Source: Deltaproteobacteria bacterium TL4 (GTDB lineage Bacteria > SAR324 > NAC60-12). Taken from it: a stretch of DNA of 22,520 nucleotides. The position numbers were made by a program, and so were the translations under genes. The stretch is taken from positions 1-22,520 of the forward strand of contig JBBCAX010000437.1 of the NCBI GenBank assembly GCA_051382335.1, in the 5' to 3' direction. The notes below the pieces were generated by a model. The model made no database searches. It had not been told where the DNA came from and was given only the letters and a program-made list of their open reading frames with translations. Positions 1,805 through 21,575 of this stretch are shown here, one piece after another (positions within the stretch are counted from its first letter, which is position 1; each line of letters opens with the position of its first letter).

Positions 1805-1860
1805 TTGATATTTTTTTTACAATTTGAAATGAGTAACATACATTGAAACCAAGAAAAAAA

Positions 1861-3205: not shown

Positions 3206-3232
3206 TCCACGAACCACACTAAATACACGAAA
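3204..3232 (+). repeat. A-type left arm (3 x ~9 bp) of GxxExxY cassette 1
   Basis: agtccacgaaccacactaaatacacgaaa; 26/29 match to the reverse complement of 3625-3653. Confidence 0.9.
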
Positions 3233-3240
3233 GAGAATGA

Positions 3241-3621
3241 ATGAGTCAGGAAATTTTATATAAAGAAGAGTGCTATCAAATACAGGGTGCTATTTTTGAA
3301 GTGTACAGGGAAATGGGGTGTGGGTTTCTGGAAAGTGTTTACCAGGAATGTCTTGAGAAGGAATTACTTAAACGTGAAATCCCTTTTCTCGCGCAACAGG
3401 AGTTGAAACTTTTCTACAAAGGGGAGGTTTTGAAACAAACTTATAAACCTGACCTGATTTGCTTTGATAAGATCATTGTAGAATTGAAGGCTCTCAGTCA
3501 AGTCACAGGAGACCATAGAGCCCAAGTACTGAATTATCTGAAAGCAACCCGTTTGAGCCTCGGTTTGCTTGTCAATTTTGGACATTATCCGAAAGCAACG
3601 GTAGAAAGGTTGGTCTTATAA
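3241..3621 (+). CDS. GxxExxY protein 1 (PD-(D/E)XK-like nuclease fold)
   Basis: 126 aa; GFLESVY motif, PDL...IVELKA, and QVLNYLKAT..LGLLVNFG. Confidence 0.92.
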   Translation: MSQEILYKEECYQIQGAIFEVYREMGCGFLESVYQECLEKELLKREIPFLAQQELKLFYKGEVLKQTYKPDLICFDKIIVELKALSQVTGDHRAQVLNYLKATRLSLGLLVNFGHYPKATVERLVL

Positions 3622-3624
3622 TTT

Positions 3625-3653
3625 TTTCGTGTGTTTCGTGTGTTTCGTGGACT
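3625..3653 (-). repeat. A-type right arm of GxxExxY cassette 1
   Basis: tttcgtgtgtttcgtgtgtttcgtggact, starting 4 nt after the stop codon. Confidence 0.9.
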
Positions 3654-3671: not shown

Positions 3672-6600
3672 ATGAACAATCGTGATATTTACCTGAAAGA
3701 TCCTACCCTCCGGAAATTGGTCAATGAAGGGGTGGCGAGTGTGAATGACCTGAATGAACATGTCCTGCGCTACGAGTTGGAGACGTTTGTCTGTAGTGGC
3801 CAATATCAAAAGGGAATTTCCCACATCCTGCGTACTTACATGGATAATATTCGGGCTTCCCAACAGCCTGGAGTCTGGGTGAGTGGATTTTATGGTTCCG
3901 GTAAATCTCACCTGGTGAAAATGCTTTCGGCGTTATGGACAGACTATCACTTTGAAGATGGAGCCAAAGCCAGAGGCATTGCCATGCTTCCTCAGGATGT
4001 CCGCGACCTGTTGGTGGAACTGGAGAAGGAAGGCAAACGGCATGGAGGTCTTCATAGTATTTCAGGAACCTTGAAAGCCAATGATGACAGTAATAGTGTT
4101 CGTTCCGCGATTTTGGCGATGGTTTTCAAATCCATCGGACTTCCCGCCAAATATCATCTGGCTTCCTTTGTGATGTGGTTGCAGGAAGAAGGTCTTCTGA
4201 AGGAAGTCCGCCAGATTGTGGAAGGCAAGGGCAAAGCCTGGGAGGAGGAAATTACCCGGCTTCATGTTTCCAAAATCATTCGTGAGGCACTCGTCCAATT
4301 AAAACCCCAGATCTTTTTTGATGAAAGAAGTTGTGCGGAAATCCTCAGGAACCAGTTCCCCTCCGGCAAGGATGTTTCCAGTGATGATATGCTCAAGGCC
4401 ATGCGGTTGGCTTTAACCCGAAATGGGAAACTGCCTCTCACCTTGATGGTGCTGGATGAAGTCCAGCAATACATTGGGGAAGACAGCCAGCGATCCATTG
4501 ATGTTCAGGAAGCGGTGGAAGCCTGCTGCAAGAATCTGGGTAGCAAAATCCTCTTTATCGGAACGGGACAAACGGCTGTTACCGGAACCAGTAACCTTAA
4601 AAAACTGGAAGGGCGTTTCACCATTCGAGTCGAACTTTCAGATACCGATGTGGATTCCGTAATTCGTCAGGTGATTCTGGCTAAAAAACCTGAAGCCAAG
4701 GAGCCCATTGAAACCATAATGCAAACCAATCTGGGCGAAATTTCCCGTCATCTTTCAGGAACAACCCTGGGACACCGGCAAGAGGACATCGCCTGGTTTC
4801 CTCAGGATTATCCGATTTTGCCCGTTCGTCGTCGCTTTTGGGAAAACACCCTGCGGGTGCTTGACAGAACGGGAACGGATAGCCAACTCAGAAATCAACT
4901 CAGCATGATTCATAAGGTGATCCAGACCAACCTGAACGCACCCTTGGGTCAGGTGATTCCTGCGGATTATCTTTATTTTGATTCAGCGGAAAAGCTCCTG
5001 CAGTCTCGCATTTTACCCCGCAAGGTCTATGAAAAAACTATGAGCTGGATCAAAGGTTCTGAAGCAGAGCAACTCATGGCTAGAGCCTGTGGTCTGGTGT
5101 TTCTGATCAATAAGCTGAGTGGCAGTAATACCGAAATCGGCATCCGTTGCACCATCCATTCTTTGGCAGACCTGATGGTTGAAAATCTGGCGAGTGGTTC
5201 CGGTTCTTTGAGAGCCAAACTCCCTGCCCTTCTGGATCAATGCGAACTGCTGATGAAGGTGGGAGAGGAATACCGTATTCAGACAGAGGAGAGTTCTGCC
5301 TGGAATGATGAGTTTCTCAGTCAACGGTCGATTTTGGCGAATGAAACCCATCGCATCGAATCAGAACGGGATGATCGTATTCGTAAAAAGTTTGGGGAGA
5401 TTGTCAAAAATCTATCTCTGACGCAGGGAACCTCCAAGGTCACCCGCACCCTCTTTCCCCATTTTGATGCCCAGTTGCCAACGGATGCGGATAAAAAAAT
5501 CTACGTCTGGGTTCGGGATGGGTGGCATATTGATGAAAATTCAGTCCGGATTGATGCCCGTCAGGCGGGGAATCAATCCCCCACCGTGTTTATCTTCATT
5601 CCCAAGCGCTCGGCGGATGATCTGAGGCATCACCTGATTGATTACAAGGCAGCCATTGCCACCCTCGATAAACGGGGAGTTCCTAATACCCCTGAAGGGA
5701 TTGAAGCACGTTCGGCTATGGAAACTACCCGGCAGACGGCTGAAACCAAAATTCGTGAATTGCTGGAGGAGTCTTTTTCAGGAGCGCGTGTGTTCCAAGG
5801 GGGCGGCAATGAGATTCCGGGAGATCATTTGCAGGAGATGGTGCTGGATGCCGCTAATAACTCGCTTCAGCGACTGTATCCCAATTTCTATTGGGCGGAT
5901 CATTTGGGTTGGGCAAAAGTTTATGAAAAGGCTCAGAAAGGAGCCCCGGATGCCTTGAAAGCGGTGGGCGATGAAGGGGAGCCTGCCAAAAATCCCATTT
6001 GTAAAGCCATCCTCGGGTTTATCTCAGGCGGAAAAAGAGGAACCGACATCCGAAATGGGTTTGAAGGAGAAACTTACGGTTGGTCACGGGATGCTGTCGA
6101 TGGGGCGCTTCAGGTGCTGCTGGTTGCAGGAATCCTCCGTGCTCAGGACGAACGTGGACAAACGGTCGATCCCAAAGAACTGGAGCGTAAATCTATCGGC
6201 AAAACGACCTTCAAGGTAGAATCCACTACCCTTACTACCATTCAGAGGATTGCTATCCGAAAATTGCTCCAGAAGGCAGGTCTGCAACCTCAGCAGGGAG
6301 AAGAGTTGGTCTCTGTCCCAAGATTCCTGCAAAAGATGCTGGATCTTGCTGAACAGGCAGGAGGGGAAGCTCCCCAACCCCTCCGTCCTGATAGTTCGCT
6401 TCTGGAAGAAATTCGCTTGCTTTCCGGAAATGAACAACTCCTGGCGGTGTATAATAATCGGGAACCCCTGGCTCAGTTTTTTGACGCCTGGACCCATCTG
6501 GCAGAACGTATTCAACAACGTTGGACGAACTGGATCATCCTTCAAAAATTGCTGAAGCATGTGAGTCAAGAACAGCCACTAGAAGAATTAGAGTCCACCA

Positions 6601-7214
6601 AACACACGAACGACACGAAAAACAAGATTGACAAGAAACAGCCCTTAGCTTCCCTTATTCGCGTTCATTCGCGTTCATTCGCGGTTCCAGACATGCAAAT
6701 CCTCTTCACGCGAATTCAAACCCTGGAACAACAACGTCAATTATTGGCGGAACCGGATTGGATCATCCCTTTGGTCAATAACCTCTCACAACTTCTGAGG
6801 GAGGAACTGAATCGGTTTCATCAGCAGTATACCCAACTCCATCAACAGGGCATGACCCGACTTCATACGGATGGAAATTGGCAAAAGCTGGAACCTGAAC
6901 AACGCAATCAACTCCTCCAGGAACAAAAACTGACGCTCTCCGATGCTCCTGTGATTCAGGTGTCCAACACCCAGGAAATTCTGAATACCCTGGAAAAAAT
7001 CTCGTTGAGCGCCCTCTCCGACCGCATCGCCGCCATGAATTCCCGCTTTGAGGCGGTTTTAACCGGAGCGGCAGAACTGATGGAACCCAAAGCCCAATTT
7101 ATAAAACTCCCAGGTCGAACCCTCAAAACCAGCGCTGAGATGGATTCCTGGCTCAATGAAGTGAAACAACAACTCCTGACAGCCCTGCAACAGGGACCTG
7201 TCGTGATACGATAA
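3672..7214 (+). CDS. brxC: BREX P-loop ATPase BrxC
   Basis: 1180 aa; RYELETFVC, Walker A GVWVSGFYGSGKSH, Walker B LMVLDEVQQY; operon position. Confidence 0.92.
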   Translation: MNNRDIYLKDPTLRKLVNEGVASVNDLNEHVLRYELETFVCSGQYQKGISHILRTYMDNIRASQQPGVWVSGFYGSGKSHLVKMLSALWTDYHFEDGAKARGIAMLPQDVRDLLVELEKEGKRHGGLHSISGTLKANDDSNSVRSAILAMVFKSIGLPAKYHLASFVMWLQEEGLLKEVRQIVEGKGKAWEEEITRLHVSKIIREALVQLKPQIFFDERSCAEILRNQFPSGKDVSSDDMLKAMRLALTRNGKLPLTLMVLDEVQQYIGEDSQRSIDVQEAVEACCKNLGSKILFIGTGQTAVTGTSNLKKLEGRFTIRVELSDTDVDSVIRQVILAKKPEAKEPIETIMQTNLGEISRHLSGTTLGHRQEDIAWFPQDYPILPVRRRFWENTLRVLDRTGTDSQLRNQLSMIHKVIQTNLNAPLGQVIPADYLYFDSAEKLLQSRILPRKVYEKTMSWIKGSEAEQLMARACGLVFLINKLSGSNTEIGIRCTIHSLADLMVENLASGSGSLRAKLPALLDQCELLMKVGEEYRIQTEESSAWNDEFLSQRSILANETHRIESERDDRIRKKFGEIVKNLSLTQGTSKVTRTLFPHFDAQLPTDADKKIYVWVRDGWHIDENSVRIDARQAGNQSPTVFIFIPKRSADDLRHHLIDYKAAIATLDKRGVPNTPEGIEARSAMETTRQTAETKIRELLEESFSGARVFQGGGNEIPGDHLQEMVLDAANNSLQRLYPNFYWADHLGWAKVYEKAQKGAPDALKAVGDEGEPAKNPICKAILGFISGGKRGTDIRNGFEGETYGWSRDAVDGALQVLLVAGILRAQDERGQTVDPKELERKSIGKTTFKVESTTLTTIQRIAIRKLLQKAGLQPQQGEELVSVPRFLQKMLDLAEQAGGEAPQPLRPDSSLLEEIRLLSGNEQLLAVYNNREPLAQFFDAWTHLAERIQQRWTNWIILQKLLKHVSQEQPLEELESTKHTNDTKNKIDKKQPLASLIRVHSRSFAVPDMQILFTRIQTLEQQRQLLAEPDWIIPLVNNLSQLLREELNRFHQQYTQLHQQGMTRLHTDGNWQKLEPEQRNQLLQEQKLTLSDAPVIQVSNTQEILNTLEKISLSALSDRIAAMNSRFEAVLTGAAELMEPKAQFIKLPGRTLKTSAEMDSWLNEVKQQLLTALQQGPVVIR
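6592..6686 (+). repeat. In-frame hybrid repeat insertion in brxC: A-left arm (6592-6620) + spacer + B-right arm (6657-6686)
   Basis: agtccaccaaacacacgaacgacacgaaa ... attcgcgttcattcgcgttcattcgcggtt, translated as STKHTNDTK...IRVHSRSFAV. Confidence 0.88.
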
Positions 7215-7221
7215 AGGTTAT

Positions 7222-8541
7222 ATGCTTACATCTATCACCTTAAGTAACTTTAAGAGCTATCGCCATGCTCAACTTCCTTTGGCAGCATTGACCTTTTTGA
7301 TTGGTCCCAATGCCTCAGGAAAAAGTAATGCGTTGGAGGCTATTCGGCTTCTGAACTGGTTGGCAAAAGGAATGCGTCTGGATGATATTGCTAAAGATAT
7401 TCAGAGTGGTGACTCCGTTGTAAGGGGGCTCGTAAAAGATCTTTTTCTCGGAGACGATCAAAAATTCCAGTTAGGTTGCCATGTTAACGATGCTCCAGAG
7501 GAGTGGGGCGATTTTATGGTCAACATCGGCCAAATCAATGAGCAATTAGTGATCGTTGGAGAAAGTGTCACCCAGAAGGATGAAAAAATACCTCTCTATC
7601 AGGTAGATGCTGAACCTAACCTTCATACGGATGAAATAAGTGTGGCTTACAATAATTTCAGCAAAGGAAAAAACAAGCCTCATATTCCCTGTTCTAATCG
7701 CCAGGCAATCTTTTACCAATTGGGAACGGCAGGGCGTTTTGATAGTGCTCATCAAAAATCTCAAACGCTCATTCCGGATGTAACCAAAATAATAAGGGAG
7801 ACCCTTCAAAATATTGTAGTTCTTGATCCAAGTCCTGCACTGATGCGAGGTTATTCCTATGCCAAGGATAACATCATCAAGGAAAATGGAAAAAACCTTT
7901 CTGCGGTACTCTATAGCCTTTGTGAGCTTGGCGAGGATAACAGACAGGCACTCCTTGCTTTTATTCGTTCACTGCCGGAACAGGATATCACTGATATCAA
8001 ATTTATCAAAAATGAAAGAATGGATGTTATGGTGCGTCTGGAAGAAACTTTTGGTCATCAGAAAAATCTTATAGATGCTCCTCTTTTGTCGGATGGTACC
8101 TTACGTGTTTTAGCTATTGGAGCAACATTGCTCACTGCTCCGCAGGGTGCTCTGGTGATTATTGAGGAAATCGACAGTGGAGTGCATCCCTCACGTGCGG
8201 GTGCATTGGTCCAACAGATCCAGCAAATAGCTACCCAACGTGAATTACGTGTATTGCTAACCTCTCATAATCCCGCTTTACTGGATTCTTTGCCAGACAA
8301 TGCCTTGGGGGATGTTCTTTGTTGTTTCCGTGATCTTGAAGAAGGAGACAGTAAACTGATTCGCTTGGGAGATCTGGATCGCTACTCAGAACTGGTAGCT
8401 CAAGGACCTTTGGGGCAATTGATGACACGCCGGGTTCTTGAGCGATTTCTGAAGGATAACACCTCCTCAGAGCAACGTCAAAAAGAGGCTATGAAATGGC
8501 TACAACAGCTTAAACAAAGCAATGGAGGAGAACAGGGATGA
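7222..8541 (+). CDS. ABC/AAA-family ATPase (AAA_21-like)
   Basis: LSNFKSY, Walker A GPNASGKSN, signature LSDGT, Walker B/D-loop IIEEIDSGVHP, H-loop TSHNP. Confidence 0.88.
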   Translation: MLTSITLSNFKSYRHAQLPLAALTFLIGPNASGKSNALEAIRLLNWLAKGMRLDDIAKDIQSGDSVVRGLVKDLFLGDDQKFQLGCHVNDAPEEWGDFMVNIGQINEQLVIVGESVTQKDEKIPLYQVDAEPNLHTDEISVAYNNFSKGKNKPHIPCSNRQAIFYQLGTAGRFDSAHQKSQTLIPDVTKIIRETLQNIVVLDPSPALMRGYSYAKDNIIKENGKNLSAVLYSLCELGEDNRQALLAFIRSLPEQDITDIKFIKNERMDVMVRLEETFGHQKNLIDAPLLSDGTLRVLAIGATLLTAPQGALVIIEEIDSGVHPSRAGALVQQIQQIATQRELRVLLTSHNPALLDSLPDNALGDVLCCFRDLEEGDSKLIRLGDLDRYSELVAQGPLGQLMTRRVLERFLKDNTSSEQRQKEAMKWLQQLKQSNGGEQG

Positions 8542-9002
8542 ACTCGATCTGTCTGTTGGACACCACGGTCTTTGTAGAGATTCTCAATGTACCCCAGAAG
8601 GCGAATCAGCATGCTCGTATCATTGAATCGCTGGAACAGAAAATAAAAGATAATGAATCTTTGTTTTTGCCTATGGCGACTATCCTCGAAACTGGGAATC
8701 ATATTGGTCAAAACGGAAACGGCAACCAGCGTCGTGACTGTGCAAAGCGTTTTGTTGAGCAGGTCACTCAAGCTATGGAGGGGAAATCCCCCTTTAAGCC
8801 CATTAGCTTTTTAACTCATGAAGCTATGAAAAAATGGTTGGCTGAATTTCCTGATCATGCGAGTCGTGGCAGTGGGTTGGGTGATCTCTCGATTATTCAT
8901 GACTGGAAGCGTCTTTGTGATCAAAATCCTCGTCGTCGTGTCTATATCTGGACACTGGATGAACATCTTGCCAGCTATGATAAACCTACAGGAGAACCCT
9001 GA
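8538..9002 (+). CDS. PIN-domain-like protein
   Basis: 154 aa with PIN-type acidic motifs LLDTTV, ILET, GLGDLSI and WTLDEHL; ATGA overlap with the upstream ATPase. Confidence 0.7.
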   Translation: MNSICLLDTTVFVEILNVPQKANQHARIIESLEQKIKDNESLFLPMATILETGNHIGQNGNGNQRRDCAKRFVEQVTQAMEGKSPFKPISFLTHEAMKKWLAEFPDHASRGSGLGDLSIIHDWKRLCDQNPRRRVYIWTLDEHLASYDKPTGEP

Positions 9003-12000
9003 TGCAACCCCTCGAAAAATCCCTTCGGAACAAACTGGAAAAGACCATCAAGGAGGCTCGTGAAATCTCGGAAGCAGCGGCAAAGGCTGCTCTGGAACAA
9101 CTGGGCGTCGGCGAAGCCAATCCCTTCCCTCATCTTGCGGAGAAGGAACGGGAACTCCGGAGGCAGTTGCGCATTCATGGGCGGCAGTTGGGCGATGTCC
9201 GTCATGCTCAAACCGAAGTGCAGGAACTTGACCGGCTGATTGAAGAAGTCGCTTATGAACACTGGCATCGAATCCTCTTTGCCCGGTTTCTCGCTGAAAA
9301 CAAACTGTTGATGTATCTCGAAGAAAAACCGCAAATAAACGCAAATGGACGCAAATTGAATGAAAACCTTATTAGCGTTCCTTCGCGTTCATTTGCGGTT
9401 GAAGATGCTGTAGCAGTGACGTTGGAAGAATGTGAGGATCTGGCGGTTGAGGAAGGTCTGAAAAACGGCTGGGAGATGGCATCCCGTCTTGCGTCCAGAA
9501 TGCTGCCCCAGGTTTTCCGGATTGATTCGGTGGTGTTTGCCCTCCAGTTTCCTCCAGAGCATCAACAAAAGCTCGAACGCCTGGGTTCCGAGTTGCCACG
9601 GGAGGTTTTTACGGCTTCGGATTCCTTGGGCTGGGTGTATCAATTCTGGCAGGCTAAAAAGAAGGATGAGGTCAACGCTTCTGAAGTCAAAATCGGAGCA
9701 CGAGAACTGCCTGCCGTCACCCAACTCTTCACGGAACCCTACATGGTCAGCTTTCTGCTCGATAATGCCCTGGGAGCCTGGTGGGCTTCCCGTCGGCTAA
9801 GTCTGGAGGTTATCAAACAAGTGTCCGCAGAATCCACAGAAAGCACGGAAATAGAAAAGGAACTAAGGAAAAGGTCTGCAATCCCTGGGGTTCCTCTCGA
9901 CTATCTGCGTTTTGTTCCTTCTTCCGTGTCTTCTGTGTCTTCTGTGTCTTCCGTGGACCTAAAATGGACTCCCGCCGCAGGCTCCTTTGACCATTGGCCC
10001 AAGCATCTGAGTGAATTCAAAGTCCTTGATCCGTGTTGTGGTTCGGGACATTTCCTGGTGGCAGCCTTTTTGATGCTGGTTCCCATGCGGATGGAACTGG
10101 AAAACCTGTCTGCACGGGATGCGGTAGATCGGGTGTTGTCTGAAAACCTGCATGGACTGGAACTCGATCAACGCTGTGTGGAACTGGCGGCTTTTGCGTT
10201 GGCGTTGACCGCCTGGAAATATCCAAATCTCCCCTCGCCCTCTGGGAGAGGGGCTGGGGGTGAGGGGCCGATAGGCTATCGGAAATTACCGGAATTGCAT
10301 CTGGCGTGTTCGGGGCTTTCGGTCAGTGTTGCCAAGGAAGAATGGAAAAAATTTGGGTTGAATCAACACAATCTGCGGATTGCGCTTGGTGATATGTACG
10401 ATGTGTTTCAGGAGGCTCCGGTTTTAGGCAGCCTGCTGAATCCCCAAAAAATCAAACTTCCCGATCAGGTGAACTGGAAATCCCTCTCCCTCTCTCTGGA
10501 ACAAGCGCTCTCCCAGGAAAAAACCGCCGAAGTTCATGAAGTGGGAGTGGTTGCCCAGGGATTGGTGAAAACGACACAACTTCTCCAACAAAAGTACCAC
10601 TGGGTGATCACGAATGTCCCCTACCTTAATCGAGGCAAACAGAACGATATTTTGAAAGATTTTTGTGAAAAACATTACCCTGAAGCCAAGACGGACCTGG
10701 CAACCGTCTTTCTTCAACGCTGCCTGGAATTGACCTCATCCCCCGTCCCCCTCTCCATCAATAGAGAGGGGGGGCTGGGAGGGACAGTCTCGGTGGTGCT
10801 GCCCCAAAACTGGCTCTTCCTCACCTCCTATAAAAAATTTCGTGAAAAATTACTCTGCAACGATCTCTGGCATCTCATTGCCAGGCTGGGACCCGGTGCT
10901 TTTGAAACCATTAGTGGGGAAGTCGTTAAAGCGATTCTGATCACCCTGAGTCGGGGAAATAAAGAGTCCACGAAACACACCCAACACACGAAAAACAAGG
11001 AACTGGATTTGTTTGATTTAGAAACCTCATCCCTAAATCCCCTCTCCATCAATGGAGAAGGGACTTTATCAACCTCATCCCTAAATCCCTTCTCCATGAA
11101 TGGAGAAGGGACTTCCAGCAAATTCTCCCCCTCGCCAGTTATGGAGAGGGGGGCGGGGGGTGAGGTCATTGCCGGTCTGGATGTCTCTGAACCCCGCACC
11201 ACCTCCGAAAAAGCATCCTTGTTGCAAACTGCTGCCATCAAACAGGTGGAGCAAGCCAAACAATTGGAAAATCCGGATGCACGGGTGGCCTTTGATGAAA
11301 TCCAAGGAGATTTACTTGAAAACTTTTCAAGTTCATATCAGGGAATAAAAACAGGAGATGACTCGGCTAAACGACGTTTTTTTTGGGAACAGGAGAATAA
11401 GAATCGGTGGTTACTTTTTTTAAGCACGGTTGATAACACCGTTGATTTTGGGGGATTTGAATCAGTTATTGATTGGTCGAAAAAGGGGAGTGATATGGCT
11501 CGTCTTCAAGGCGTTGGTGGTTGGGGACAGTATGGTATTCTAGTGAGTCAAATGAGACATTTACCAGTTTCACTTTTTAATGGGAGTAAATTTGACAGTA
11601 ACGTTTCTGCATTACCAGTCAGCAACCCCGCCCATATCCCTGCCATCTGGTGTTTCTGTTCCTCCCCAGAATACAACGAAGCTGTGCGGCAGATTGACCA
11701 AAGCCTGAAAGTTACCAATGCCACGTTGGTCAAAGTTCCCTTTGACCTGGAACACTGGAGCAAGGTAGCAGAAGAAAAATATCCTCATGGACTGCCGAAG
11801 CCCTATTCCGATGATCCCACTCAATGGATATTTCATGGGCATCCGGGCGGGTCGGTGGTGTGGAATGAAACCACGAAGAAACTGGAAGTCGCTCCGACCT
11901 TACGAACGGATGACACGGTGTTGCAGGTGGCGGTGGCGAGATTGCTGGGGTATCGCTGGCCTGCGGAATTAGAGTTAGAGTCCACGAAACACACAAAATA

Positions 12001-12898
12001 CACGAAAGAAATAAATGAAAACCTGATTGGCGTTCATTCGCGTTCATTTGCGGTTAATAACACATTGGAACTTTCTGAAGAATCTCGTTTTTGGGTCAAA
12101 CAATGCGAGGAACTAATATCATTTGTGGATGAAGATGGCATTGTGTGTATCCCTCCAGTTCGGGGAGAGGCCGCAGCGGCGGATCGGTTGATCAATCTCC
12201 TCGCTAAAGCTCATGCTCAACATTCTTCTGGATCAGAGGGAGCCTTTCTTTCCTGGACGGAAACCCTCTTAAAAAACTCCGATCACGCTGGAAAATCCCT
12301 GGAAACCTGGTTGCGTGACAAGTTCTTCCTCCAGCACTGCAAACGGTTCCAGCACCGTCCGTTTATCTGGCAAATCTGGGATGGTCTGAGGGATGGATTT
12401 TCCGCGCTGGTGAATTATCACAAACTGGATCACAAACTGCTGGAAACCCTGATTTACACCTATCTGGGCGACTGGATCACCCGTCAGAACGATGACCTCA
12501 AAAGCGGTGTGGATGGCGCTCAGGAAAAGCTGGCGGCTGCGGAACAACTCAAGAAAAAACTGGAAGCGATTCTGGAGGGTGAAGCACCCCTGGATATTTT
12601 TGTCCGCTGGAAACCCTTGTCCCAACAACCCCTTGGCTGGAATCCTGACCTCAACGATGGCGTGCGCCTCAACATCCGCCCCTTCATGACCGCCGGAGTC
12701 CTGCGCTTTAACAAAAAACCCCAACTCAACATTACCTGGGACAAAGACCGTGGCAAAGATGTCGAATCCGCTCCCTGGTTTCATCGCTTCCAGGGCGACC
12801 GCATCAATGACCATCATCTATCTCTGTCTGAAAAATTAAAAGCAAAGGAGTCCACGGAACACACAGAAAACACGGAAAACAGGATAAAAAATGGATAA
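9002..12898 (+). CDS. pglX: BREX adenine DNA methyltransferase PglX (BrxX)
   Basis: 1298 aa; LGWVYQFW, PAVTQLFTEPY, motif I VLDPCCGSGHFL, motif IV ITNVPY, and C-terminal DLNDGVRLNIRPF. Confidence 0.92.
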   Translation: MQPLEKSLRNKLEKTIKEAREISEAAAKAALEQLGVGEANPFPHLAEKERELRRQLRIHGRQLGDVRHAQTEVQELDRLIEEVAYEHWHRILFARFLAENKLLMYLEEKPQINANGRKLNENLISVPSRSFAVEDAVAVTLEECEDLAVEEGLKNGWEMASRLASRMLPQVFRIDSVVFALQFPPEHQQKLERLGSELPREVFTASDSLGWVYQFWQAKKKDEVNASEVKIGARELPAVTQLFTEPYMVSFLLDNALGAWWASRRLSLEVIKQVSAESTESTEIEKELRKRSAIPGVPLDYLRFVPSSVSSVSSVSSVDLKWTPAAGSFDHWPKHLSEFKVLDPCCGSGHFLVAAFLMLVPMRMELENLSARDAVDRVLSENLHGLELDQRCVELAAFALALTAWKYPNLPSPSGRGAGGEGPIGYRKLPELHLACSGLSVSVAKEEWKKFGLNQHNLRIALGDMYDVFQEAPVLGSLLNPQKIKLPDQVNWKSLSLSLEQALSQEKTAEVHEVGVVAQGLVKTTQLLQQKYHWVITNVPYLNRGKQNDILKDFCEKHYPEAKTDLATVFLQRCLELTSSPVPLSINREGGLGGTVSVVLPQNWLFLTSYKKFREKLLCNDLWHLIARLGPGAFETISGEVVKAILITLSRGNKESTKHTQHTKNKELDLFDLETSSLNPLSINGEGTLSTSSLNPFSMNGEGTSSKFSPSPVMERGAGGEVIAGLDVSEPRTTSEKASLLQTAAIKQVEQAKQLENPDARVAFDEIQGDLLENFSSSYQGIKTGDDSAKRRFFWEQENKNRWLLFLSTVDNTVDFGGFESVIDWSKKGSDMARLQGVGGWGQYGILVSQMRHLPVSLFNGSKFDSNVSALPVSNPAHIPAIWCFCSSPEYNEAVRQIDQSLKVTNATLVKVPFDLEHWSKVAEEKYPHGLPKPYSDDPTQWIFHGHPGGSVVWNETTKKLEVAPTLRTDDTVLQVAVARLLGYRWPAELELESTKHTKYTKEINENLIGVHSRSFAVNNTLELSEESRFWVKQCEELISFVDEDGIVCIPPVRGEAAAADRLINLLAKAHAQHSSGSEGAFLSWTETLLKNSDHAGKSLETWLRDKFFLQHCKRFQHRPFIWQIWDGLRDGFSALVNYHKLDHKLLETLIYTYLGDWITRQNDDLKSGVDGAQEKLAAAEQLKKKLEAILEGEAPLDIFVRWKPLSQQPLGWNPDLNDGVRLNIRPFMTAGVLRFNKKPQLNITWDKDRGKDVESAPWFHRFQGDRINDHHLSLSEKLKAKESTEHTENTENRIKNG
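9327..9400. repeat. Empty B-type hairpin in pglX (B-left 9327-9356, 14-nt loop, B-right 9371-9400)
   Basis: aaccgcaaataaacgcaaatggacgcaaat / attagcgttccttcgcgttcatttgcggtt; arms 25/30 complementary; the left arm is 29/30 identical to 18344-18373. Confidence 0.9.
9823..9958. repeat. C-type (A-related) inverted arms in pglX (9823-9850 and 9922-9958)
   Basis: gtccgcagaatccacagaaagcacggaa ... ttccgtgtcttctgtgtcttctgtgtcttccgtggac; translated SAESTESTE and SVSSVSSVSSVD. Confidence 0.82.
10229..10266 (-). repeat. GC-rich REP-like palindrome (D family) in frame in pglX
   Basis: ctcccctcgccctctgggagaggggctgggggtgaggg with stem cccctcgccc/gggagagggg; translated LPSPSGRGAGGEG. Confidence 0.85.
10733..10773 (+). 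repeat. GC-rich REP-like palindrome (D family) in frame in pglX
   Basis: acctcatcccccgtccccctctccatcaatagagagggggg; translated TSSPVPLSINREGG. Confidence 0.82.
10965..10993 (+). repeat. Solo A-left arm in pglX
   Basis: agtccacgaaacacacccaacacacgaaa; translated STKHTQHTK. Confidence 0.88.
11023..11166. repeat. Cluster of three D-family palindromes in pglX: two direct 44-bp copies (11023-11066, 11071-11114) and one inverted copy (11125-11166)
   Basis: aacctcatccctaaatccc(c/t)tctccat(c/g)aatggagaagggactt twice, then ctccccctcgccagttatggagaggggggcggggggtgaggt. Confidence 0.88.
11979..12055 (+). repeat. In-frame hybrid repeat insertion in pglX: A-left (11979-12007) + B-right (12026-12055)
   Basis: agtccacgaaacacacaaaatacacgaaa ... 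attggcgttcattcgcgttcatttgcggtt; translated STKHTKYTK...IGVHSRSFAV. Confidence 0.88.
12850..12878 (+). repeat. C-type left arm of GxxExxY cassette 2 (within the last codons of pglX)
   Basis: gtccacggaacacacagaaaacacggaaa; 25/29 match to the reverse complement of 13293-13321. Confidence 0.88.
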
Positions 12899-13289
12899 GC
12901 TTCCTTCAGAGGATAACAAACTGCTCTTTGAAAAAGAAACGTATGCCCTCCGTGGTGCTGTGTTTGAAGTCTATAGAGAGATGGGGTGTGGCTTTTTGGA
13001 AGCCGTCTATCAGGAATGTCTGGTGAAGGAGTTGACTCGACTGGGTATTCCTTTTGTAGCTCAACAGGAGTTAACGCTCACTTATAAAGGAGAGGCCTTG
13101 AAGCAAACCTACAAACCCGATTTTATTTGTTATAATGCGATTGTAGTGGAACTCAAAGCCTTGTCTGCAACAACAGGTGAGCATAAAGCTCAGGTTCTCA
13201 ATTATCTAAAAGCCACTGGAATGAAGGTTGGACTTTTAGTGAATTTTGGAAGTTATCCCAAAGCTACGGTAGAAAGGTTGGTTTTATGA
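12891..13289 (+). CDS. GxxExxY protein 2
   Basis: 132 aa; GFLEAVY, PDFIC..IVVELKA; close paralogue of 3241-3621 (shares FEVYREMGCGFLE, AQVLNYLKAT, YPKATVERLVL). Confidence 0.92.
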   Translation: MDKLPSEDNKLLFEKETYALRGAVFEVYREMGCGFLEAVYQECLVKELTRLGIPFVAQQELTLTYKGEALKQTYKPDFICYNAIVVELKALSATTGEHKAQVLNYLKATGMKVGLLVNFGSYPKATVERLVL

Positions 13290-13292
13290 TTA

Positions 13293-13321
13293 TTTCAGTG
13301 TTTTCAGTGTTTTCAGTGGAC
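13293..13321 (-). repeat. C-type right arm of GxxExxY cassette 2
   Basis: tttcagtgttttcagtgttttcagtggac, starting 4 nt after the stop codon. Confidence 0.9.
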
Positions 13322-13338
13322 AATAAAAGAGGTATTTC

Positions 13339-14421
13339 ATGAATCAGAATCATTTAACCCGTATTGTTTTGAATGGGTTTAAATCGATCAAGACTTGTGA
13401 TCTGGAACTGAAAGATCTCAATGTTCTGATTGGTCCAAATGGAGCTGGGAAGTCTAATTTCATCAGCTTTTTCAAAATGATCCAGCAGATGTTGGGAGGT
13501 AATCTTCAGCTCCATGTGGGGCGGGAAGGAGGACCTGATGCACTTCTGCACTTTGGTAGAAAAAAGACAGAAAACATCCAGGCTAAACTCTACTTTGGAA
13601 ATAATGGCTATGCCTGTGTTCTTGAACCAACCCAGGATCACCGATTGATGTTTTCAAATGAGTTTTTTGGGTGGGATGTGAGCGGTTTTAAATCGATTGG
13701 TTCCGGACATTTTGAAACCAAAGCTTTTGAAGGAACTAAAACCGGTATTGATCAATATGTCCTGACCGCCATGCAAAACTGGAAAGTCTATCATTTTCAT
13801 GACACCAGCGAAACAGCCAGGGTAAAACAAAGAGATGATATCAATGATAATATGTATTTACGTCCAGATGCCCGAAATCTGGCGGCTTTTCTGAACTTGC
13901 TGAAGATAAAATACAACAATCATTATCAGCGTATTATCAAAACCATCCGACTGGTTGCCCCTTTTTTTGAAGATTTTTGTTTAAGACCCAATTCCGATAA
14001 CCAAGACCGGATTGAATTGGAGTGGATGGAAAAAGGAGAGGATAAGCCATTTAAAGCACACCTTCTTTCGGATGGAACACTGCGTTTTATTTGTATCGCG
14101 ACGGTTTTAATGCAACCGGATCATCTCCAACCTCAAACGATCCTGATTGATGAACCAGAATTGGGACTTCATCCTTTTGCTATTCATTTACTGGCAGGCA
14201 TGCTTCGATCTGCCTCGAAAACAACGCAAATTATTATTTCAACTCAATCCTGTGAGTTATTAAGTGAATTTGAAGTGGAGAATGTAATTGTTGCGGATCG
14301 CACAGAGGGAGGGACTTATCTGCATCGTCTTGATAAAGATTCTCTGGTCAGATGGTTGGAAGACTATTCACTAGGAGAACTCTGGCAAAAAAATATTTTG
14401 GGAGGGAGTCCATCAAAATGA
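13339..14421 (+). CDS. ABC/AAA-family ATPase (AAA_21 / SMC-like)
   Basis: NGFKSI, Walker A GPNGAGKSN, YHFHDTS, LSDGTLRF, IDEPELGLHP, ISTQS, YSLGELWQKN. Confidence 0.88.
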   Translation: MNQNHLTRIVLNGFKSIKTCDLELKDLNVLIGPNGAGKSNFISFFKMIQQMLGGNLQLHVGREGGPDALLHFGRKKTENIQAKLYFGNNGYACVLEPTQDHRLMFSNEFFGWDVSGFKSIGSGHFETKAFEGTKTGIDQYVLTAMQNWKVYHFHDTSETARVKQRDDINDNMYLRPDARNLAAFLNLLKIKYNNHYQRIIKTIRLVAPFFEDFCLRPNSDNQDRIELEWMEKGEDKPFKAHLLSDGTLRFICIATVLMQPDHLQPQTILIDEPELGLHPFAIHLLAGMLRSASKTTQIIISTQSCELLSEFEVENVIVADRTEGGTYLHRLDKDSLVRWLEDYSLGELWQKNILGGSPSK

Positions 14422-15923
14422 AGCAACAGGAAATCATAGAACTTATCGCTCAGGGGGAAAATTCCAGTGTGGAATTCAAACGGGATGATCTTCGACCGGA
14501 GCAATTGGCTAAAGAGGTTGTGGCGATGGCGAATTTGCAAGGGGGCGTCATTCTTCTTGGAGTGGAGGATGACGGGTCCGTGAGTGGGATAAGCCGCAAA
14601 AATCTGGAGGAATGGGTCATGGATACGGTCTTTGGACGCTACATTCATCCAGCCATCATTCCACACTATCAGGAACTCCAATGGAGGGAGGGGCAACGAA
14701 TCGCCCTTATTTCCATTTCTACCGGTACCTCCAAGCCTTACGTGGTCAGACATAATGATCGTGAGGATATTTATGTGAGGATGGGTTCCGTTACACGACT
14801 TGCGACGCGTGAACAGGCACTTCGGTTGTTTGGTTCCGGGGGATTGTTACACACGGAAACCCTGCCTGTTTCTGGTTCCTCTTTCAAACATTTGGACCCA
14901 GTCCGTATTGAGAATTATCTGCGAGATATTTTACAGGAGCAGGATATGCCGGAATCTGAAGCACAATGGGTGGATCGACTCGTGGGACTGGGGTTTTTGA
15001 CCACCGATGCCATGGGGCAAACGGTCTGCACGATAGCAGGGATGGCTTTGTTTGGGATTCGTCCCAGAAGATGGTTGCCTCAAGCGGGTTTGAGAGTCGT
15101 GGTTTTTGATGTGGCTGACAAGCAATATCAGGCGCTCCTGGATGTTGTTCTGGATGGACCGATGGTGGGACGGTGGCATCTTGAAAAAGAAAAACTCAAA
15201 ACATTGGTCGATGATGGACTGGTTGAGAAGTTTATCCGGGCTATCGAGCCCTTTGTTACGGTGGAAGATAACCAGATTGATCAGAATTTTAGAAAGGAAA
15301 AGCGCTGGCTTTATCCGATGGATGCCATTCGTGAAACCGTCTTGAATGCCTTGGCGCATCGGGATTGGACCCGGTCGGTGGATATTGAAATTACCCGTTA
15401 TAGTGATCGGCTGGAAATCATCAGTCCGGGAGCCTTACCGAATTCGATGACTTTGGAAAAAATGAAGGCTGGACGGAGAACTCCCCGTAATCCCATCCTT
15501 ATGGACGTCCTGAGGGATTATGGTTATGTTGAGGCTCGGGGGATGGGAGTTCGTACCAAGGTCATTCCATTGACGCGGCAGTTCACAGGCTCGGAACCTC
15601 TGTTTGAAGCGACCGAGGATTACTTGAAGACGGTCATTGCGGTGGGAACGCCTTCCCCTTCTGTCCCTAAAAAAGAAAAAACGTCCCTGAAAAACGTCCC
15701 TGAAACCCAGGTTTCTTCAAAAAACGTCCCTAAAAATGAGTTTCAGAGACATTTACTGTCCCTGATCAGGGACAATCCCCACCTCACTTATGAGGAATTA
15801 TCCGCTCAGACGCAGTGCAACCGCAAAAAGGTTCAACGTCACCTGAACGCACTCAAGGATTCCGGATTTTTACGCAGGGAAGGCTCGCCCAAGGGAGGGC
15901 ATTGGGAGGTGTTGGAGTTATGA
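14418..15923 (+). CDS. Schlafen/AlbA_2 domain + RecG-C/HATPase_c_4-like domain + C-terminal HTH protein
   Basis: N-terminal GENSSVEFK...AMANLQGGVILLGVEDDG; ETVLNALAHRDW, EIISPGAL, PRNPIL, EARGMG; HTH TYEELSAQ...RREGSPKGGHWEV. ATG 14418 chosen for its ATGA overlap. Confidence 0.85.
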   Translation: MKQQEIIELIAQGENSSVEFKRDDLRPEQLAKEVVAMANLQGGVILLGVEDDGSVSGISRKNLEEWVMDTVFGRYIHPAIIPHYQELQWREGQRIALISISTGTSKPYVVRHNDREDIYVRMGSVTRLATREQALRLFGSGGLLHTETLPVSGSSFKHLDPVRIENYLRDILQEQDMPESEAQWVDRLVGLGFLTTDAMGQTVCTIAGMALFGIRPRRWLPQAGLRVVVFDVADKQYQALLDVVLDGPMVGRWHLEKEKLKTLVDDGLVEKFIRAIEPFVTVEDNQIDQNFRKEKRWLYPMDAIRETVLNALAHRDWTRSVDIEITRYSDRLEIISPGALPNSMTLEKMKAGRRTPRNPILMDVLRDYGYVEARGMGVRTKVIPLTRQFTGSEPLFEATEDYLKTVIAVGTPSPSVPKKEKTSLKNVPETQVSSKNVPKNEFQRHLLSLIRDNPHLTYEELSAQTQCNRKKVQRHLNALKDSGFLRREGSPKGGHWEVLEL

Positions 15924-18355
15924 AAGTGATGGAACACCTCAAGAAAGCGATACGAGATGCTGCGATTTATAACCCTGAAGTCCAGGTAGCTCCTGCCTGT
16001 ATTCTCTGGACAGATCATGACCGACAATGGGAACCCGTGATTCCAAGGCTTCAAATGGAGATGCCGGAATTACTGGTCTTGGGAAACTATAATCCTGAAA
16101 AGCGGACAGGTCCCGCAATCTGGTTACGGTGTGTGCTAGAGGGAAAATTTGTCCACGAAACACACGAACAACACGAAAAAAATAAAAAAATTGAACAACC
16201 GCAAATGGACACAGATGGACGCAAATCAAGTGAAACCAATATTCGCATTGATTCGCATTCATTCGAGGTTCCCATTCTTTACTTACCCGGTGTGAGTCGG
16301 CAGGCTTTGAGAGCGGTTGAAAATTGTCCGGAGTTTCTGAAGCCCTTGGCGGAGTTGCAATACCGTGGAGTGATTTGGTCACAGGTCAATGCCAAAGACT
16401 GGACGGTGATGGCTTTTCTGAAATCCGATCAGGGTGGGTTGGGACTGGATGTCTCCCAGGATAATGATACCCGAAATTCCATGTTGTTGGCTTTAACCGC
16501 CTTGTTGGATGAAAAGGTGACTCATCTCAAAGGAAAACATCTGGATCGGGACTATTTCAATGAGTTGTTGACTGGAGGCGATCCTGTGAAGGATTTGCTC
16601 CAATGGATGGATCAGGAAGAGGCTTTTCAGAAAGGACGGAGTTCCAATGAATGGAAAGCTTTTGTGGAGTTATGCAAATCCAAATTTGCCTTTAATCCTG
16701 TCCAGGAGGGGATTTTGACAGGTGTCTCCAGACTGGCGACGCATGAAGGAGCCTGGAAAGCCGTGTGGGAACGGTTTTGTGAAGCACCTGCCCGGTATTC
16801 CAACATTCCCTCTAAAATGCGTAAGGCATCCATGCCTCCACAGGATCTGTTTTCTGATGAAAGCACCCACGGAGGTTGGCCTCAGTGGAATGACATTCAG
16901 GAAAAAAATCTTCGCCAGGACTTACTGGAGTTGAATAAGATGCCACCTCATGAAGCCCGAAAAAAAATATTGGAGCTGGAAAAAAAGCACTCTCGCAGAC
17001 GGACTTTGGTATGGGCAGAACTGGGAGAATCTCCACTGGTTTTGACTTTAGCACATTTGGCTGTATTGGCAGAAACGACGCAATATAGTCTGACTGCCGG
17101 GACTCTTGAAGACCTGGTTTCGAGTTATTCCACTCAGGGCTGGAAATCCGATGATGCGGTACTGAGTGCTTTGGCTGAAATAGAGCCTGCGGACTTTGAA
17201 ATCATTGTAGCGGTATTGCGTGCGGTTTATCTCCCTTGGGCTGAAGAATCTGCAAGGTATCTGCAGAAAATCTGGAACCCTGAAGGGCCATGCAAAAGAT
17301 CCCATCCTCCTGGAACCCCTGAATGTATTTTGTTTGTGGATGGATTACGGTTTGATTGCGCCAAGCGCCTGTCCGCTATCCTTGAAAAAAAGGGGATCAC
17401 GATTCAGGAAAAAATCTGTTGGGCGGCTCTGCCCAGTGTAACAGGGACCGGTAAACCCGCAGTGGTTCCTCTAGGGTTATCCTCCAGCGTTGCGGAAGAA
17501 GCAGAATCTCAGGATTTTCAGGTGATGACCTCGTATCAGTTTGACAAAGCCATGAACGATTCGGGTTGGTTGATCCTCCGTTCCAAAGACCCCATTCCTG
17601 CCCCTGTTCAGTCCACGGGTTCTGGCTATTTAAACAATTCCATTGTTAATAAACTATGGGTTGAGTTTGGTAATATTGACCATGAAGGGCATGATCGTGG
17701 ATGGAAACTGGCTAAACACCTGGAGGGGTTGCTGGAGGAGATCAGTGACCGGATCCAAATGCTCCTGTCTTCAGGTTGGAAAACAGTTCGGGTGGTTACC
17801 GATCATGGTTGGTTACTCTTGCCGGGTGGACTTCCCAAAGGGGAGTTATCCAATGCCTTGGTAGAAAGTAAATGGGGACGTTGTGCATCCTTGAAAAAGG
17901 GCGTCCATAGTGAAGAAAAACTCTATCCCTGGTATTGGAATCCGATCCAGCATTTTGCTTTGGCAGAGGGGATAAGCTGCTTCCGTAAGGGAGAGGAATA
18001 CACTCATGGGGGATTGAGTCTGCAAGAATGTGTAACCCTTGAATTGGTGGTTTCTGAAGAAAAACGGCAGCAATCCATTTCTCTGGAATTTACCGATGTT
18101 GTATGGAAAGGAATGCGTTGCACCGTAGCCCTTACCGAGAATTTTGAGGGATTATCCCTGGATATTCGTAAGCAACCTGGAAATCCGGAGTCCAGTGTGG
18201 TTGTGGGAGTTAAACCCATAAAGGAAAATGGAACCGCCTCGGTGGTGGTTGAAAATGAAGACTTGCAGGGGCAAGAGGTGACTTTGGTTCTCATGGATGC
18301 AAAGGGAAGTTTGGTAGCACAGATTGCCACAGTAGTAGGAGAAAACCGCAAATGA
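15920..18355 (+). CDS. pglZ: BREX phosphatase PglZ (type B)
   Basis: PACILWTD, RTGPAIWLRC, and alkaline-phosphatase-superfamily motifs FVDGLRFD, ALPSVTGTGKPAV, IDHEGH, VVTDHGW, YTHGGLSLQE. ATG 15920 has an ATGA overlap and ggag RBS. Confidence 0.92.
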   Translation: MKVMEHLKKAIRDAAIYNPEVQVAPACILWTDHDRQWEPVIPRLQMEMPELLVLGNYNPEKRTGPAIWLRCVLEGKFVHETHEQHEKNKKIEQPQMDTDGRKSSETNIRIDSHSFEVPILYLPGVSRQALRAVENCPEFLKPLAELQYRGVIWSQVNAKDWTVMAFLKSDQGGLGLDVSQDNDTRNSMLLALTALLDEKVTHLKGKHLDRDYFNELLTGGDPVKDLLQWMDQEEAFQKGRSSNEWKAFVELCKSKFAFNPVQEGILTGVSRLATHEGAWKAVWERFCEAPARYSNIPSKMRKASMPPQDLFSDESTHGGWPQWNDIQEKNLRQDLLELNKMPPHEARKKILELEKKHSRRRTLVWAELGESPLVLTLAHLAVLAETTQYSLTAGTLEDLVSSYSTQGWKSDDAVLSALAEIEPADFEIIVAVLRAVYLPWAEESARYLQKIWNPEGPCKRSHPPGTPECILFVDGLRFDCAKRLSAILEKKGITIQEKICWAALPSVTGTGKPAVVPLGLSSSVAEEAESQDFQVMTSYQFDKAMNDSGWLILRSKDPIPAPVQSTGSGYLNNSIVNKLWVEFGNIDHEGHDRGWKLAKHLEGLLEEISDRIQMLLSSGWKTVRVVTDHGWLLLPGGLPKGELSNALVESKWGRCASLKKGVHSEEKLYPWYWNPIQHFALAEGISCFRKGEEYTHGGLSLQECVTLELVVSEEKRQQSISLEFTDVVWKGMRCTVALTENFEGLSLDIRKQPGNPESSVVVGVKPIKENGTASVVVENEDLQGQEVTLVLMDAKGSLVAQIATVVGENRK
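16151..16270 (+). repeat. In-frame compound insertion in pglZ: A-left (16151-16178) + B-left (16197-16226) + 14-nt loop + B-right (16241-16270)
   Basis: gtccacgaaacacacgaacaacacgaaa; aaccgcaaatggacacagatggacgcaaat; attcgcattgattcgcattcattcgaggtt. Confidence 0.87.
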
Positions 18356-18373
18356 ACGCAAATGGACGCAAAT
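18344..18373 (+). repeat. B-type left arm (3 x 10 bp) of GxxExxY cassette 3
   Basis: aaccgcaaatgaacgcaaatggacgcaaat; 26/30 match to the reverse complement of 18762-18791; contains the pglZ stop and the GxxExxY start (ATGA 18352-18355). Confidence 0.9.
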
Positions 18374-18753
18374 ATGTTGAAAGTGATTTGGTTTATCGTG
18401 TTGCCGGTTGTGCCATGGCGGTGTTGAATGAGTTGGGTCATGGATTAAGAGAGAAAACCTATGAACGTGCATTATGCGTTGAATTCAGACATCAGGGTGT
18501 TTCCTATAAACAACAGCAGGTTTACCCGGTCTACTACCGAGATGAACATGTGGATGACTACATTCCTGACCTGGAGGTTGAAAGTCGGTTGATTATTGAG
18601 ATTAAAACGGTTGAGAAGATTATTGATGAACATATCGGTCAGGTTCTGAATTATTTACGGATCACGGGACATGAGGCAGGTGTCATCATGAACTTTAAAC
18701 ATGCCAAACTTGAATGGAAAAAAGTTGTTTTACAGGAAAGCCGGAATCCATGA
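18352..18753 (+). CDS. GxxExxY protein 3 (divergent clade)
   Basis: 133 aa; GLREKTY motif, IPDLEV..IIEIK, QVLNYLRITG...IMNF. Confidence 0.92.
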   Translation: MNANGRKYVESDLVYRVAGCAMAVLNELGHGLREKTYERALCVEFRHQGVSYKQQQVYPVYYRDEHVDDYIPDLEVESRLIIEIKTVEKIIDEHIGQVLNYLRITGHEAGVIMNFKHAKLEWKKVVLQESRNP

Positions 18754-18761
18754 TTTTTTTA

Positions 18762-18791
18762 ATTTGCGTTTATTTGCGTCTATTTGCGGTT
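18762..18791 (-). repeat. B-type right arm of GxxExxY cassette 3
   Basis: atttgcgtttatttgcgtctatttgcggtt. Confidence 0.9.
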
Positions 18792-18804
18792 AAAAGGAGT
18801 TCTG

Positions 18805-21494: not shown

Positions 21495-21575
21495 GATTTT
21501 TTTGATGAACTGGATCAACTGCGATTGTTATAGCAGATCACCTTCTTTATATTTATGAACAAGGAGAGCTAAGAG

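Follow-up and report, generated by a model that had tools for sequence, protein, structure and literature searches.

The window analysed in this work is a stretch of 22,520 nucleotides, the whole of contig C437 (GenBank JBBCAX010000437.1), from the 6.6 Mb genome (G000) of Deltaproteobacteria bacterium TL4. It carries a type I bacteriophage exclusion (BREX) operon in which three core genes contain short repeats that are translated in frame. Nine internal in-frame inserts were identified in total, one in brxC, seven in pglX, and one in pglZ. Judged from sequence comparison, these inserts are likely (probability of roughly 0.65) remnants of small nuclease cassettes that have been kept where BREX proteins probably tolerate extra residues. 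The insert sites are probably tolerated landing sites for selfish DNA and not a shield against phage inhibitors, because the same positions in related enzymes are occupied by other repeats or by whole nuclease domains. The inserts are also probably near neutral for defence.

Repeat inserts and nuclease cassettes of the operon

Two insert families (A and B) match the inverted arms of three cassettes in the same operon that hold GxxExxY nuclease genes, and a third family is a DUF559-type hairpin. The nine inserts are listed below with window positions, strand, and amino acid (aa) positions in the proteins.

6592..6686, + strand: brxC insert, chimeric (A left arm, spacer, B right arm); no fold
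9327..9400, + strand: empty B doublet (left arm, 14-bp spacer, right arm); 25 extra residues at PglX aa 109; hairpin z -4.25
9823..9853, + strand: solo A arm; 8 extra residues at PglX aa 277
9927..9958, - strand: solo inverted A arm; 10 extra residues at PglX aa 309
10229..10268, + strand: GC-rich DUF559-type hairpin at PglX aa 409
10733..10785, + strand: GC-rich hairpin; 12 extra residues at PglX aa 581
10965..11166, + strand: composite in pglX (A left arm, short spacer, three GC-rich hairpins at 11024-11166); net gain of 52 residues
11979..12055, + strand: chimeric doublet (A left arm with spacer and right arm as in the B doublet at 9327); 28 extra residues at PglX aa 993
16150..16270, + strand: pglZ insert (A left arm in another frame, then a degenerate B doublet), assigned by alignment and arm comparison

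An earlier note on this DNA had named repeats inside these three genes, and a repeat is present at every coordinate that it gave. Its count of about eight pglX sites is reduced to seven internal sites, and nine sites overall, because the repeat at 12849 belongs to the intact cassette at 12849-13321 as its left arm and replaces the pglX C-terminus. Two further overlaps, absent from its list, are those of arms with the stop codons of brxB (3204) and pglZ (18344).

The window proteins were aligned to homologues from 79 genome loci. BrxC exhibits a window-only insert of 38 aa at aa 967 (54 homologues). PglX exhibits window-only inserts of 25, 8, 10, 8, 12, 63, and 28 aa together with a C-terminal extension (63 homologues). 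PglZ exhibits window-only stretches of 11 and 19 aa at a single site (41 homologues), and it also has an indel of 8-10 aa near aa 558-568 that is not repeat-derived. No window-only insert was found in the alignments of BrxA (52 homologues), BrxB (54), and BrxL (33). Larger homologue sets (120 PglX, 119 PglZ, and 119 BrxC) agree on the insert sites. The possibility raised beforehand, that the peptides are conserved parts of all homologues, is contradicted by the alignments of all three proteins.

Searching the window with profiles of its own arms yields 10 A arms, 8 B arms, and 5 hairpin sites, whereas the same profiles give 0, 1, and 0 matches, respectively, at E<1 on the shuffled genome. The profile search identified no arms inside brxL, both ATPase genes, the PIN-like gene, and the Schlafen gene, as the earlier note had observed. 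brxC and pglX share one reading frame of the A arm, pglZ uses another, and the arm is inverted at 9927-9958. The conserved object is the DNA and not the peptide, as had been proposed, since one arm has three readings. For each long insert, two of the three frames contain stop codons, and the frame in use is the open one. The probability that all nine inserts would keep the frame without selection is about 5e-5, conditional on having noticed an intact operon. The folding of two of the seven stretches examined beats that of shuffled sequences, and solo and mixed arms do not fold, so the term palindrome does not fit all inserts. Mixed families are found both in brxC at 6592 and in pglX at 11979, each with an A left arm and a B right arm. 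In the 11979 doublet, the A left arm continues in register into a spacer and right arm of the type at 9327.

An intact cassette consists of a nuclease gene between two inverted arms. The operon has three of them, each about 450 bp long, which are located at the brxB/brxC junction, at the pglX end, and at the pglZ/brxL junction.

3204..3653, + strand: cassette 1, inverted A arms (three 9-bp units) around a GxxExxY PD-(D/E)XK gene at 3241-3621 (TIGR04256, E 5e-42)
12849..13321, + strand: cassette 2, inverted A arms around a GxxExxY gene at 12891-13289; the left arm encodes the pglX C-terminus
18344..18791, + strand: cassette 3, inverted B arms (three 10-bp units) around a GxxExxY gene at 18352-18753

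The left arm of cassette 3 provides both the pglZ stop (18344) and the nuclease start. A period of 9-10 bp would put the units on one face of the DNA, like protein-binding arrays. Three of the four GxxExxY genes of the genome sit in the BREX operon, and GxxExxY matches were found in 13 of 40 related genomes. Of 26 GxxExxY loci taken from relatives and contig C375 (window copies excluded, some loci truncated), 18 lie between inverted arms, versus 7 of 130 control stretches. The arm unit and its period follow the nuclease tree (29 proteins, judged by eye), from which the arms and the gene appear to travel together, a pattern equally expected from co-inheritance alone. A full cassette of 483 bp (C375) and an empty version of 120 bp with matching ends (C50) coexist in the genome. 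The neighbours of the cassettes in relatives are mostly housekeeping genes (proS, gatB, valS, pheT, rimO, and cobalamin genes, with one HsdR gene, among 42 scanned), and locus L091 has a GxxExxY cassette of a different clade at the same pglX-end junction.

Homologues also carry other unit types, which are DUF559 with GC-rich hairpins and RAYT with repetitive extragenic palindromic sequences (REPs). The GC-rich hairpins of the window (10229, 10733, and 11024-11166) resemble those flanking DUF559 domains in homologues. Inspection by eye of the three cassettes, C375, C50, and the 96%-identical pair P0025/P0044 revealed no clean target-site duplication, a check made without a close empty DNA allele and hence not strict. 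The A and B arm alignments contain no GTAG or CGTC tag. The window cassettes hold TIGR04256/PF13366 and no RAYT, and 12 Y1_Tnp matches lie elsewhere in the genome. No Hint family was found in the Pfam scan of the window, where the inserts are 8-63 aa long, and no recombinase or invertase gene was found there by Pfam and profile scans. A single GxxExxY query matched 8 of 72,556 plasmids and 0 of 50,697 phages, which gives no sign of a phage or plasmid vehicle. The family (PDDEXK_3) is listed as of unknown function, with multiple transfers, in the accessible part of PMC3424549.

The A-like arm pattern has 98 matches in the genome versus 0 in the shuffled genome, and many of these matches lie within one repeat of about 150 bp. 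This repeat, with its 109-bp A-like doublet, has many near-identical intergenic copies, on C4, C13, C33, C46, C87, C90, C132, C148, C152, C159, C207, C279, C324, and C326. The 109-bp doublets were rejected as independent insertions because they share flanks and are parts of the one repeat. B arms and GC-rich hairpins are almost confined to the window within the genome, which suggests that the locus may have arrived already marked. A search of the genome gave two weak partial DUF559 matches and no full gene, which is consistent with DUF559-type hairpins arriving with the locus.

Shared insert sites and competing explanations

The 120 PglX homologues, which were ranked by an insert-bearing query, contain six DUF559 and five RAYT (Y1_Tnp) domains, and one DUF559 carrier also has GIY-YIG. 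The loop that corresponds to window aa 309 holds all 11 DUF559 and RAYT domains, and also three RAYT fusions from among 158 loci fetched by pattern. The suggestion that homologues might carry whole domains at the insert sites thus holds for DUF559 (6 of 120, at one site) and fails for GxxExxY, which is found in frame in none of the 120. The seven PglX sites of the window are filled in 4, 14, 40, 9, 21, 16, and 12 of the 120 homologues, respectively, at a threshold of at least six extra residues that includes some non-repeat indels. The PglZ site is filled in 9 of 119 homologues and the BrxC site in 1 of 119, at the same position. The pglX sites are often filled by visibly unrelated repeats (family labels by eye and Pfam), and several repeat families occur among the 21 homologues filled at aa 581. 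The same few sites in pglX homologues hold intact units as well as empty doublets, solo arms, and doublets of mixed family.

Over ten sites in 121 PglX proteins, the occupancies are 3, 5, 15, 41, 10, 7, 22, 17, 13, and 9, and the changes needed on a FastTree phylogeny are 3, 4, 11, 27, 6, 6, 18, 12, 13, and 7 (585 columns, insert sites and variable recognition domain left out). The carriers are scattered over the tree; for instance, 22 carriers need 18 changes and 13 carriers need 13. PglX neighbours with 90-96% identity differ in their inserts. The inserts are also clumped per protein, where 66 of the 121 PglX proteins are without inserts and nine have five or more, and the occupancy variance is 3.35 versus a maximum of 1.53 in 10,000 permutations.

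The sites were located on the insert-free P0011 model (pLDDT, predicted local distance difference test, 85.7; pTM, predicted template modelling score, 0.74). Six of the seven PglX sites of the window lie in coil or hairpin tips (binomial p 0.036, given about 45% coil by hand count), in agreement with the proposal that the inserts occupy tolerant loops. The exception, position 523, is a helix-to-strand turn that DSSP assigns as strand. The loop rule is not strict, because several sites found only in homologues (620, 896, 928, and 1014) are within helices, near their ends. The model of the window PglX itself (aa 1-1190) is poor (pTM 0.46), with many core stretches also under pLDDT 50, so the loop calls rest on P0011. 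The best structural match of this window model is Salmonella PglX (8c45; Z 15.0, root mean square deviation 14.7 over 671 residues).

The following mechanism is proposed. The cassette nuclease would cut or nick DNA, after which recombination-repair by the host would place a copy of the cassette, or of a single arm, at a new site with no target duplication. Deletion between the arms could then remove the cargo gene, and in-register recombination between similar units could exchange one arm for that of another family. Selection would purge events that shift the frame or break the fold, so that the survivors would collect in few loops. Defence methyltransferase genes would gather most inserts because such genes recombine and pass from host to host, and several sites would be marked at once in a host whose cassette family is active. 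Nuclease-initiated copying, cargo loss, arm exchange, and selection on frame and fold are, taken together, the likely account.

Several findings weigh against this account. The highly conserved residues are kept at 229 of 241 positions in PglZ and 554 of 588 in BrxC, both below the minimum of the homologues, and at 390 of 396 in PglX, although in all three cases the window sequence is the outlier of the sets that define those columns. About 45% of the P0011 model is coil, yet only about 15 sites are used. The top-120 PglX set favours carriers, and the 158 pattern-fetched loci contain only three in-frame RAYT, no DUF559, and one GxxExxY. The tree counts are blind to gain versus loss, and pglX may be mosaic. 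The closest pglX allele has 74.5% identity, and the junctions are not fixed at the base level because no close pglX was found in the 40 related genomes. Lastly, valine occupies one flank position of the aa 581 site in 22 of 22 carriers versus 4 of 99 empty alleles, where 7.6 of 8 independent pairs agree, and the contrast is weaker in the loci (6 of 6 versus 30 of 151). Tolerance alone leaves this valine, shared whatever the repeat family, unexplained; patch transfer or compensation could account for it.

Patch transfer is the core of a tentative alternative that is compatible with the cassette-remnant explanation. Each site would have been opened once, and the filled allele would spread between pglX genes as a short recombination patch, in a homing-like gene conversion, with resident arms overwritten by the family active in the current host. 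Besides the aa 581 valine, carriers of any repeat family share a flank residue at aa 409 (10 of 10 versus 0 of 111) and at aa 108 (3 of 3 versus 0 of 116, two GIY-YIG-type carriers set aside). The aa 409 insert and three flanking codons are common to the window and L002, at 67% overall DNA identity, and the in-register joining of the mixed-family doublets fits as well. Against it, no co-conversion tract was seen in the 12-codon flanks of five sites, where synonymous sites are near saturation, a carrier ranked first in only 1 of 10 flanks (L091, z 2.4), and the shared flank residue could have arisen as a compensating or permissive change. A doubtful, more far-reaching reading describes PglX and other defence methyltransferases as having reusable slots where at least four cassette families (GxxExxY, DUF559, RAYT, and GIY-YIG) trade arms and cargo by recombination between short repeat units. 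The aa 309 site would then be a plug-in port that toggles PglX between a plain methyltransferase and a methyltransferase-nuclease fusion, a splice-free modular remodelling, and the window locus would be in the empty-port state, stamped by several past hosts. It is unlikely that the loops are functional docking slots at which BREX swaps nuclease domains (DUF559, RAYT, GIY-YIG) through the arms, with arm-only sites as the empty state. The concentration of domains at one loop speaks for it, as does the enrichment of both PglX and DUF559 proteins among predicted inversion targets in the accessible part of PMC9881135. The same cassettes, however, lie between housekeeping genes in relatives, BrxC and PglZ have remnants only, and the window has no recombinase gene in the scans above.

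That the operon is dead and the inserts are decay is quite unlikely. PglZ and BrxC do keep fewer conserved residues than the homologue sets, the HEC-01A-like ATPase is without its usual partner gene, and damaged IS1634 copies flank the locus. Nevertheless, the six core frames are open, the nine inserts keep the frame despite the low chance of this without selection, the long inserts are stop-free in the used frame only, the catalytic motifs are invariant, and the residue differences are mostly conservative. The earlier note had further proposed that the inserts alter surfaces bound by phage anti-BREX proteins. Adaptive surface changes that block proteins such as Ocr are very unlikely, even though the inserts lie mostly in coil and are concentrated in PglX, the Ocr target. 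Six Ocr salt bridges on Salmonella PglX are described in the accessible part of PMC11341690, and five of these residues map to about aa 545, 1091, 1118, 1131, and 1222 of the window protein (by alignment, partly hand-counted, aa 1222 through the E. coli chain), with the sixth unmapped. One site of homologues, near aa 1071, lies 20 residues from a mapped contact. All five mapped contacts, however, are at least 35 residues in sequence from any internal PglX insert of the window, and aa 1021-1282, which holds four of them, is insert-free, so the anti-inhibitor idea is unsupported. The peptide also varies by frame, strand, and family, and similar inserts are found in unrelated genes of the genome. 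A phase-variation switch, with inverted arms as inversion sites, is highly improbable. The A arm at 9823 and the one at 9927-9958 point towards each other across about 75 bp of the host gene, and PglX is a known inversion target (PMC9881135, accessible part). This pair, the one tested, was rejected because inversion of 9824-9957 introduces a stop in pglX. In addition, the window showed neither an invertase nor a second partial pglX, and left-type and right-type arms occur separately at both sites in homologues.

Known systems and the genome-wide pattern

The comparisons with published systems in this section use the accessible parts of the sources cited. Rickettsia palindromic elements (RPEs) and intragenic miniature inverted-repeat transposable elements (PMC10969869) are also short repeats in frame that are translated and apparently tolerated, and the parallel drawn in the earlier note fits this outcome. 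RPEs are, however, palindromes of about 150 bp with a conserved peptide in unrelated metabolic genes. The window repeats are nuclease-cassette arms of 30-75 bp in varying frames, often unpaired or mixed, with several families per site. REPtrons and TIRtrons (Di Nocera et al. 2013, PMC3733652) likewise have an enzyme gene between inverted repeats that also occur alone, with ends that supply stops. Intragenic REPs in the same source often lie in genes for DNA processing; some genes hold two of them, and some insertion sites are common to two species. RAYT inserts of PglX homologues resemble REPtrons, and those of L076 and L154 carry a GTAG/CGTC-type end. The window arms have no such tag, form triple direct-repeat arrays, and flank a PD-(D/E)XK gene and not a tyrosine transposase. 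The ShiLan homing insertion (PMC11855218) is a non-splicing nuclease insertion that is read through in a phage DNA methylase at a predicted harmless loop. It differs in having an out-of-frame HNH gene at one site, and its abstract has no mention of terminal arm arrays or solo-arm remnants. Inteins differ in having a Hint splicing domain. The inserts are not members of the RPE, REP, ShiLan, or intein classes, because no GTAG/CGTC tag, RAYT, Hint domain, or visible target duplication was found.

The literature search found no description of these cassettes; the supplements of PMC3733652 and PMC12839542 (unread) may bear on novelty. The main text of PMC12839542, a 2026 survey of BREX, does not contain DUF559, transposase, GIY-YIG, or Vsr. 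The window contributes a complete series of remnants within one operon, arms of mixed family, a map of PglX slots, and a methyltransferase excess within the genome. One operon holds every stage of the life cycle (intact cassette, empty doublet, solo arm, and mixed-family doublet), which we have not found in print, and it is a compact test bed for element movement and for the role of GxxExxY. The shared slots map where PglX takes 8-200 extra residues, which is useful for tagging or fusing BREX methyltransferases. The annotation of proteins of 1400 aa as DUF559 protein or RayT transposase can hide an intact PglX.

Inverted repeats were searched inside 3542 open reading frames (ORFs) of at least 200 aa, and 23 matches were found versus 4 in codon-shuffled controls. 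Nineteen of the 23 ORFs were Pfam-scanned, three were identified otherwise, and one (C89) is without annotation. Repeats are found in 6 of about 31 DNA-methyltransferase genes, a hand-merged set that may include fragments and non-DNA enzymes, versus 17 of 3511 other genes. The odds ratio is 49 (p 2e-8), or 30 (p 3e-5) without two weak cases, with no length-matching. This excess of about 40-fold suggests that small selfish DNA finds preferred refuges in defence genes. The methyltransferase carriers, followed by an HsdR gene, are listed below.

C437: window pglX, internal inverted repeats
C13:1701-4013 (L209): second PglX-like gene, in-frame triple-arm doublet; the contig also has brxB
L201:1349-4927 (C336), - strand: DUF1156 methyltransferase, in-frame RAYT cassette (arms 3031-3057 and 3681-3707)
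C345:8706-10424 (L204): N6/N4 methyltransferase, in-frame RAYT-like cassette with 34-bp inverted arms
Two similar Eco57I-family fragments: weak 15-bp repeat
C92 (L200:2948-2973): type I HsdR, solo A-like arm in frame

The DUF1156 gene on C336 also has an arm doublet of 95% identity at 1014 bp from its RAYT cassette. A relaxed arm pattern gave 20 matches inside ORFs outside the window versus 7 on shuffled DNA, and it missed the RAYT-type inserts on C336 and C345. These matches were rejected as likely chance except for HsdR, the only one to score also in the profile search (E 0.57). Defence genes are not the only ones affected, because two kinase-AAA-GAF-histidine kinase genes of about 1850 aa on C142 (L202 and L203) and an FGE-sulfatase gene on C302 (L207) also carry in-frame repeat inserts, which are of hairpin or heptamer-array types.

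Related arms are present in a NOV_C-domain gene upstream of the DUF1156 gene, and about 15 tandem 36-bp repeats (L201:728-1365) adjoin a free-standing RAYT gene. At C135:17985-23786 (L205 and L206), a reverse transcriptase with a MutS_I-like tail adjoins an Lcl_C-domain gene, a pair which we take to resemble a diversity-generating retroelement.

Gene content of the BREX locus

The six core genes brxA, brxB, brxC, pglX, pglZ (type B), and brxL are in type I BREX order with all frames open. The earlier claim that ORFs are open and catalytic motifs intact is borne out, where pglX motifs I and IV are invariant versus homologues.

1843..2664, + strand: brxA (PADLOC BrxA, E 1e-106), insert-free
2651..3205, + strand: brxB (Pfam BrxB); the stop codon overlaps the left arm of cassette 1 (3204)
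3672..7214, + strand: brxC (NF033441), open frame, Walker A at aa 72-79
7222..9002, + strand: PDC-M07A/B accessory pair, ATPase and PIN-like gene (PADLOC), no arms
9002..12898, + strand: pglX methyltransferase, open frame, motif I at aa 343-351 and motif IV at aa 538-541
13339..15923, + strand: HEC-01A-like ATPase and Schlafen/AlbA-HATPase-HTH gene (Pfam, PADLOC), no arms
15920..18355, + strand: pglZ type B (NF033450, E 1e-259), open frame
18784..20853, + strand: brxL (Pfam), insert-free

The locus is similar to the type I BREX with PglZ type B in the accessible part of PMC11341690 (8C45/8Q56), with six core genes in order and intact motifs. It differs from this reference in its longer PglX and in the three cassettes at gene junctions. 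The PglX of the window has 1298 aa versus a homologue median of 1142 aa, a length that is explained by the repeat inserts. Two or three tandem pglX genes are found in loci L143, L144, L146, L148, L152, and L045.

The accessory defence genes occupy the usual slots of type I BREX. The HEC-01A-like ATPase gene (13339-14421) is without a partner gene downstream, and in related loci a gene of ATPase size is often followed by a gene of about 200-240 aa (DUF4276 in L065). A small gene with a WGR domain (21080-21343) is located downstream of brxL. Two IS1634 copies, near-identical and in the same orientation, flank the operon at 127-1664 and 21575-22520. A one-base gap lies close to the start of the right copy, whose sequence diverges from about 780 bp onwards.

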